Assembly: GCA_913020725.1 (NCBI GenBank)
Contig: CAJWCD010000024.1
Span: 1-30,573, forward strand
DNA from: an uncultured Pseudomonadota bacterium
Lineage (GTDB): Bacteria > SAR324 > NAC60-12
Length of the DNA: 30,573 nt
Reading direction: 5' to 3'
Under the pieces are notes generated by a model that ran no database searches, was not told where the DNA came from, and saw nothing but the letters and a program-made list of their open reading frames with translations. Shown here piece by piece: positions 1 through 933 of the stretch (position 1 is its first letter; every line of letters begins with the position of its first letter). A program made the position numbers and the translations under genes.

Positions 1-20
1 TTCGTCTTGCCCGGGACTAA
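1..20 (+). CDS. 3' end (partial) of probable FGE-sulfatase/CLec-fold DGR target gene
   Basis: From nt 3 the frame reads CGT CTT GCC CGG GAC TAA = RLARD*, preceded by xTT (F if TTT). This matches the GFRxxR C-terminus of FGE/CLec-fold proteins. It is followed directly by hairpins and an avd gene. Only 20 nt are visible. Confidence 0.55.
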
Positions 21-40
21 CCCTCTTCCCTTTTCCAAAG

Positions 41-73
41 ACCCCTGCGTGGGGTGAGGGGGCGTCAGCCCCC
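41..73 (+). promoter_or_regulatory. GC-rich hairpin pair downstream of putative DGR target (candidate DGR homing hairpin/cruciform)
   Basis: ACCCC-TGCGT-GGGGT (41-55) and GGGGGC-GTCA-GCCCCC (58-73, 6-bp stem, 4-nt loop), 21-53 nt after the putative target stop codon. There is no U-tract right after the stem. Confidence 0.55.
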
Positions 74-85
74 CGGATTTCCCCA

Positions 86-520
86 ATGCCCAAAATGCGT
101 ACAACTCCGGTGGAATCCGTGGAGACGTGCCACAAGTTGCTGCTGTGGCTGGTCCCCCATCTCGACAAGTTCCCGCGCAACCGACGCTTCACGCTGGGAG
201 AGCGGCTGGAATCGACGCTGCTTATGGTACTGGAGGAAGTCATTGAGGCATTCTACAGCCGCGAGAAGCAAGCCTCACTGCACCGGGCCAACCGACGGTT
301 GGCGGTGGCGCGGCACCTGTGGCGACTTTGCCACGAATTGCAGGTGATTTCCACTCGTCGCTACGAACACGGGGCACAACTGGACTGGGAGGGTTTCAAT
401 CTCGCCGTGCAAAGCTGGATCGGCCACGCACAGCACGCGGAGACGGAGGGCTTGCGTCCCCACGGCATTTCTGGAATGCTGAAGCCTGCTCAACCCTTCT
501 ATTTCTGGAGATTGCCATGA
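86..520 (+). CDS. avd: DGR accessory variability determinant Avd (four-helix bundle), C-terminally fused to an RT-tail-like peptide; probably a remnant
   Basis: [28 protein letters not shown]...[30 protein letters not shown] is typical of bAvd-like proteins. The usual terminal GxxIGGW helix is absent and replaced by [26 protein letters not shown]. Confidence 0.85.
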
Positions 521-933
521 AGTACCTGCACACGATGATCCGTGTCCGTGACCTTGACGCCACCCTCGACTTCTTCATCAACAAACTCGGTTTTGTCGAA
601 CAGCGTCGCAAAGACTCTGAAGCGGGCCGCTTCACGCTGGTGTTCCTCGCACCGACTCCGGATGACCCACCGCTGGAACTGACTTACAACTGGGATCCGG
701 AAGCCTACGGCGGGGGACGCAATTTTGGGCATGTTGCCTACTCCGTCGAAAACATCTACGACTACTGCGCCAAGTTGCAGGAGTCCGGAATTCCGATCCT
801 GCGACCGCCCCGCGACGGCAAGATGGCGTTCATCCGGACACCGGATGAGATTTCCATTGAACTCTTGCAGGAAGGCGAGGCGCTGCCACCGCAGGAACCG
901 TGGACTTCGCTGCCGAACCAAGGCGAGTGGTGA
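517..933 (+). CDS. gloA: Lactoylglutathione lyase (glyoxalase I, VOC family)
   Basis: [14 protein letters not shown]...GRFTLVFL...[23 protein letters not shown]...[30 protein letters not shown] at 507-510, ATG at 517. Confidence 0.93.

Follow-up and report, generated by a model that had tools for sequence, protein, structure and literature searches.

An Avd-reverse transcriptase fusion ORF as the probable remnant of a DGR in a marine SAR324 bacterium

The ORF at positions 86-520 of the forward strand, which is open over 144 aa and overlaps the following gene, gloA, at ATGA, is in all probability (about 85%) the remnant of an avd-RT-TR DGR from which two segments are missing, likely through two deletions at microhomologies; the remnant is likely non-functional and in neutral decay. 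Avd residues 1-99 are followed in this ORF by residues 316-340 of a DGR reverse transcriptase (RT) and then by 20 codons of host intergenic DNA. A preliminary description of the sequence had proposed a collapsed DGR in which avd and an RT tail form one reading frame; comparison with the intact cassettes of the metagenome loci L018 and L019 confirmed this. The window, i.e. the whole stretch of DNA analysed (30,573 nt), is the entire contig C24 of assembly G000 (3.45 Mb, 93% complete, 204 contigs). G001 and G002 denote sister species and G006 a family member; labels of the type L0xx are used for metagenome loci, P0xxx for proteins, C-numbers for contigs of G000 and X3-X6 for DNA runs. The stretch occurs in marine and hydrothermal metagenomes, and a truncated allele of the related RT is labelled SAR324 cluster bacterium at its source.

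The fusion ORF and its intact counterpart

The contig starts within the end of a target gene or variable region (VR). Positions 1-20 (+) carry the final codons of a DGR target gene with its stop, or the VR 3' end (..RLARD*). They match the 3' end of the template repeat (TR) except for nt 13, where the TR has an adenine; the corresponding place in L012 is the end of an 805-aa caspase + Lcl_C + FGE-sulfatase target. The VR is followed at 21-76 (+) by a pyrimidine tract and two G+C hairpins (41-55 and 58-73), recognized by their fold and repeated in the genome. These likely form the target-recognition hairpin, a role suggested by their position, the fold alone being not significant (z -1.67; 17 of 200 shuffles as good). 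Codons 1-99 of avd, which encode helices 1-3 and the start of helix 4, occupy 86-382 (+) and are 98% identical to the intact avd of L018/L019. Residues 13-97 match the Avd family NF033474 (E 8e-21, 74.3 bits, cut-off 80) over profile positions 5-89 of 104; the match thus ends ahead of the last helix, as had been described for an Avd-like ORF that loses its final helix after about nt 382. PF22296 is matched at 38.9 against a cut-off of 40, so that the chimera falls below the curated Avd cut-offs of both families, whereas the intact allele scores 100.3 and 63.8, respectively. The conserved fourth-helix motif G-x-Q-x-G-G-W is missing from the chimera.

The RT fragment (383-456, +; aa 316-340 of 384) can be traced at both the DNA and the protein level. 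Nucleotides 380-456 are 94.8% identical over 77 nt to the intact cassette of L018/L019, the fragment is 81% identical to the RT of G006, and the peptide encoded at 383-457 is similar to DGR RTs (G006 RT, 75% over 28 aa). The fragment had been assigned to the extreme C-terminus of an RT; its origin in an RT tail stands, but it lies near and not at the end of the protein. Likewise, the proposed likeness of aa 97-125 to DGR RTs was borne out, while aa 125-144 are a read-through of host DNA at 457-516 (+), the intergenic sequence upstream of gloA, which is 88% identical to the spacer of G002 and is found in G001 too. Between the fusion ORF and gloA there is no TR and no RT core, in agreement with the preliminary description. 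The gene at 517-933 (+) is a gloA-like glyoxalase (PF00903, E 8.5e-19), a host gene outside the DGR with orthologs in four of five relatives searched, including both of those within the genus. A promoter scan gave one site, inside the gloA start, and none ahead of avd. In all four RNA runs, chosen for containing the stretch, contigs cover gloA or the gene after it, and 100-543 is free of them; as contigs cannot show absence, this was given no weight.

Intact cassettes are carried by L018 and L019, two of the 32 metagenome loci, in which a complete avd, 98% identical to that of the window, is followed by a 384-aa RT with YVDD (RVT_1, 68.2 bits in L019) and then by the TR, which in L019 overlaps the last 25 RT codons. 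A close cassette (RT identity 78%) is present in one of the family's 44 other genomes, that of G006, where target, hairpin, avd, RT and TR follow each other; a template repeat is thus present in L018/L019 and in G006. The intact relative that the preliminary description had asked for was therefore found and the breakpoints mapped on it, but the parent order that it assumed, avd-TR-RT, was not the actual one. Among 21 related loci with all three parts placed, loci cut by a contig end or inverted being excluded, avd-RT-TR is the order in 18 and avd-TR-RT in 3. The window copy is collinear with the intact avd-RT-TR cassette and has defined missing segments, as a remnant of this architecture (B2) should. 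An origin from phage was considered and rejected, the RT having no relative and the hairpin no match in viral contigs.

The surroundings of the intact cassette offered some further observations. At L019:1790-3805 it adjoins a 172-aa ORF and then a DUF927 gene, an arrangement that suggests a mobile element; the 172-aa ORF also occurs in G000, at C29:27655-28329, without a DGR. An avd stub is joined straight to the same 172-aa ORF at L039:1963-2111, which amounts to deletion of the whole engine. Two TR alleles (L019:1407-1516 and that of protein P0169) differ where the VRs imply adenine, giving D or E in the overlapping RT frame, and this difference would explain one of two non-adenine mismatches.

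Two joins and the order of loss

Junction 1 lies at 380-382 (+). By comparison with L018 (357-1360), 1,004 nt are absent between two CTG triplets, one at avd codon 99 and one at RT codon 315, a gap that comprises avd codons 100-119 and RT codons 1-315. A microhomology at CAACTG had been suggested; it was rejected, as the RT side reads CGGCTG and the common bases are CTG only. Junction 2, at 450-456 (+), is marked by GCTTGCG, and RT codons 341-384, the TR and the DGR spacer are missing there. RT likeness stops at nt 456, beyond which the intact RT continues differently, and in G002, which represents the empty site (hisF stop, short spacer, adjacent gloA), the spacer is alike from window nt 450; hence GCTTGCG is common to RT and host spacer. 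A contig of G001 starts at the same base (nt 450), whereas hisF of G000 sits on another contig with other DNA behind it. Two deletions are needed since the parent order is avd-RT-TR and not avd-TR-RT; for the same reason, a single deletion from an avd-TR-RT parent was rejected, the TR of the parent lying after the RT. The single in-frame deletion of more than 1 kb proposed earlier therefore holds for junction 1, which removed just over 1 kb in frame, but a second deletion at 450-456 removed the TR.

The ORF was likely produced by two microhomology-mediated deletions, and their order can be suggested from one allele. In P0151, junction 2 is preceded by at least 190 nt of RT and the ancestral WEDF is retained, so that junction 2 was probably the earlier; P0151 is known from a single contig, and such alleles may contain assembly errors. 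The first deletion would have taken the TR and the end of the RT and so killed the element, and the dead RT would then have been trimmed more than once near the same spot, in frame or out.

Two other ideas were tried and rejected. A general hot-spot of similarity between the avd end and the RT tail would place the best local match in the tail window, which was seen in 3 of 15 cassettes against about 14% expected (4 of 19 cassettes were dropped, having no anchor motif), and the retention of RT tails across several lineages may be a search bias. An RT-less TR donor (mini-DGR) does not fit the window allele, the tail of which ends about 60 nt short of the TR; L017 ends at the branch point, and the rejection covers the window allele and not L017.

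That junction 1 is a chimera of the assembly is almost certainly wrong. The contig does begin in a repeat 85 nt upstream of the fusion ORF, and intact and fused forms co-occur in samples, which are conditions under which such an error might arise. However, listed contigs of three of the four DNA runs, from three studies, bridge 380-382 (X4 and X6 each over 110-1500, X5 over 260-1500), X3 breaking at 380-382 among the pieces listed, and the fusion is carried by 8 of the 32 metagenome loci (L012-L017, L020 and L036). The alleles with the junction carry their own linked variants, and an overlap of 3 nt is too short for the joining of assembly words. The junction is thus no misassembly, a possibility that the preliminary description had raised.

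Allelic variation, retention and action in trans

The fusion is widespread, the top fused alleles being found on 6 to 17 contigs, and it exists in several forms. Among 30 fused proteins compared, junction 1 is in frame as GAQL-DW in 10 and as GGRL-DW in 5, and two frameshifted forms account for 9 and 6; these counts are no frequencies, since of the main cluster, which also includes intact Avd, only 15 of 70 members were listed. The depths of intact and fused contigs were not taken as frequencies either, as they do not give the proportion of cells. Replacements fell on positions conserved in at least 90% of 109 homologs in 5 of 12 cases for in-frame and 4 of 10 for out-of-frame alleles, and such positions make up 44 of 96 overall; the two shares being about the same, conserved sites are not spared. 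Among the changes at conserved sites are D27E, H77Y and, in the allele found on most contigs, W21R. Individual loci have decayed further: L036 has an additional frameshift in the tail, and L017 combines the fusion with a deleted avd start, a tRNA-Gly and repressor region lying upstream. Only a degenerate VR-like stretch is present in L013-L016, accompanied upstream of L013, L015 and L016 by a sugar-transport operon; L014 is short and differs further upstream. The 14 members of the RT cluster comprise 2 whole proteins, 10 that stop after aa 147-148, 1 that is frameshifted and 1 cut near aa 212, and stubs of avd end at nt 98 (C191), 144 (L040-L042) and 148 (L039).

Several side observations belong here. 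Ten of the proteins P0158-P0168 represent a common second dead allele, with the RT cut after aa 147-148, on contigs of up to 75 kb. In L036, the second half of gloA (codons 76-137) is replaced by a more diverged, A+T-richer copy with mostly synonymous changes, owing either to recombination or to a chimeric contig. In L067 and L068 (Methylococcaceae), likeness to avd ends at about aa 73 with no RT near, and these are further DGR remnants.

The open frame and the ATGA overlap with gloA, from which it had been argued that the chimera may be translated, are both present but are weak signs of function: frameshifted alleles are common, each of the two sister species shows a 1-nt indel in the hisF-gloA spacer, and gloA begins ATGAAG, so that its own first bases supply the stop of the fusion ORF and any -1 read-through stops there. 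With avd only about 2% diverged from its intact form, the frame would be expected to stay open without selection. Nevertheless, the chimera could have been kept as a folded Avd variant, in which a helix of the RT would replace helix 4 and the protein would oligomerise and either serve or poison an incoming intact DGR. We consider this very unlikely, even though a predicted structure lends it some appeal: in the AlphaFold model, a four-helix bundle, the RT tail supplies an unbroken fourth helix at 90-123, with a pLDDT of about 80 for aa 91-110, the Trp of the RT is aligned in the column of the invariant Avd Trp, and the model superposes on Bordetella Avd (4dwl) with an rmsd of 1.4 over 110 residues. 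The alignment underlying the model, however, placed intact Avd homologs against the tail and so biases the result; the mean pLDDT of the model is 73.7 against 89.9 for intact Avd (about 42 for aa 125-144), and of G104, G108 and W110, invariant in 110 intact Avd sequences, the chimera retains the aligned Trp only, both invariant helix 4 glycines being replaced.

Selection on the fused alleles is similarly two-sided. The avd part of eight fused DNA alleles has, once 8 non-homologous codons are excluded from L017, 7 synonymous against 4 replacement changes, an excess of synonymous changes over the neutral expectation (binomial p 0.008) and a more synonymous pattern than in two neighbouring genes (7 vs 17 pooled; Fisher p 0.07), which would favour retention, as would the existence of two different in-frame junctions; the excess could, though, have been inherited from intact alleles. 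Against retention stand the 15 frameshifted alleles, the changes at invariant sites and the loss of the start in L017. Independent fusions of Avd to an RT tail occur in other organisms as well: two are found among the 117 homologs listed (P0040 in frame, P0057 out of frame), in addition to P0152. The in-frame cases (P0040/P0153 and P0152) speak for a kept protein, and the out-of-frame one (P0057/P0154) against it. A TR may follow in P0153 and P0152, since these retain the natural RT end. None of the 12 loci found in a search for genomic examples of the P0040 fusion was fused. That Avd might naturally end in an RT-like peptide was rejected, as 102 of the 117 homologs listed keep G-x-x-[ILV]-GGW, variants of this pattern occurring in most of the remaining 15.

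The window contains only 20 nt of target or VR, but L012, the same locus, has the full target. Mismatches of VRs to the TR of L019 are concentrated at adenines, with 12/29 adenines against 2/81 other positions in L012, 20/29 against 2/81 in C191 and 19/29 against 4/81 in C46 (16/29 against 12/81 in C190, three more copies on C190 and C191 being degenerate), and this bias indicates that the DGR did act on genes of G000. Of an RT with a YxDD core, only aa 316-340 are found in the window and nothing elsewhere in G000: there is no RVT_1 match, and tblastn with the G006 RT returns only the RT tail of the fusion. The TR signature is likewise absent from the window and from G000, an incomplete assembly in which an RT could be unassembled. 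A second Avd-like match, at C67:4594-4848, was discarded as an unrelated four-helix-bundle gene, by eye of the 23S-rRNA-intervening type, with an internal TGA.

It was proposed earlier that the target might depend on a DGR acting in trans, and in its full form this would mean that the upstream target is live and remote and is diversified by an RT and TR that are intact at another site in the same cell, the fusion being incidental. We judge this highly improbable, no RT or TR having been found in the 93%-complete genome and the DGR slot of L019 being occupied by other DNA on C29. The VRs of C191 and C46 do match the intact TR at 79/81 and 77/81 non-adenine sites, an intact RT tail is present in all four DNA runs, G000 is incomplete and breaks at the repeat of the window, and trans action at degenerate loci is described in the available part of Doré et al. 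(bioRxiv 10.1101/2023.09.22.558884). The VR of C191, on the other hand, is identical in L039 (0/140 differences), but the preceding 380 nt are identical too, and this is only consistent with freezing.

A wider scheme would join these elements: an intact avd-RT-TR carried by a mobile element in part of the population would rewrite dispersed caspase-lectin targets marked by the repeated VR-end/hairpin module and be shed repeatedly by deletion, locking variants, with the helix-swapped Avd-RT fusion, which several unrelated lineages share, as a kept brake on the returning engine. As a whole, this scheme seems unlikely. The preferred reading remains a non-functional remnant in neutral decay; targets in such cells would keep their existing VR sequence, and diversity in the population would come from strains that still carry the intact cassette.

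The VR-end/hairpin module (window 21-98) is itself a dispersed repeat, with 8 matches in G000 (including C190, C191, C180 and C46), 4 in G001 and 1 in G002. Some copies follow non-target genes, GNAT-like and molybdopterin-oxidoreductase-like by ORF reading, and the module may serve for recombination within a variable island. Contig depth summed over nt 1-50 exceeds that of gloA about 50- to 90-fold in the four DNA runs, a value that is no copy number. At C47:1-347 (the minus-strand end), an 802-aa frame of caspase/FGE type breaks at the contig end before its VR and is a candidate for the gene that precedes the window.

Comparison with known systems

According to the available part of Handa et al. 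(bioRxiv 10.1101/2023.10.23.563531), reverse transcription requires a template with flanking RNA, the RT and Avd, and none of template, RT and Avd is whole in the window. A dead remnant is of little weight in itself; its value is as a marker of a SAR324 DGR with caspase and lectin-fold targets. In a literature search outside which most subscription papers lay, no paper joining DGRs and SAR324 was found, nor, by title or the start of the abstract, one on Avd-RT fusions, and a DGR in marine SAR324 is apparently previously undescribed. The base-resolved order of loss and the many separate inactivating alleles would allow a test of whether loss of the engine is selected, by locking variants, or neutral, and the case is a warning that chance can produce a fusion ORF that is open and overlaps the next gene at ATGA.

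Among solved structures, a sequence search with the chimera gave nothing, whereas the predicted fold of aa 1-120 resembles BPP-1 Avd (PDB 4dwl, 8ub7; Foldseek E 2.8e-3, TM 0.89 on target length). BPP-1 differs in its order, avd-TR-brt, and in its native helix 4, which is replaced in the chimera. The architecture of the intact parent is the avd-RT-TR type named B2 (Wu et al. 2018, PMC5758913). As far as the available part of that paper goes, B2 DGRs and the parent are alike in the order of target, hairpin, avd, YVDD RT and TR, in FGE-sulfatase/C-type-lectin targets and in adenine-specific differences between TR and VR; the window copy departs from them in having no RT core, TR or spacer and an Avd under the family cut-off.

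The closest parallel is found in Thiohalocapsa PB-PSB1, for which the available part of Doré et al. (bioRxiv 10.1101/2023.09.22.558884) describes degenerate DGR loci that lack the RT or TR in populations that also harbour intact variants, so that DGR decay with coexisting intact variants is already published. Deleted and intact variants coexist in nature in both systems, and both are cellular, with multiple targets and modular N-termini. As described there, decay in PB-PSB1 is tied to IS and MITE-like elements, and complete loci are kept in the genome. In SAR324, by contrast, no complete locus was found in the genome, the joins are microhomologies, and an Avd-RT fusion results.
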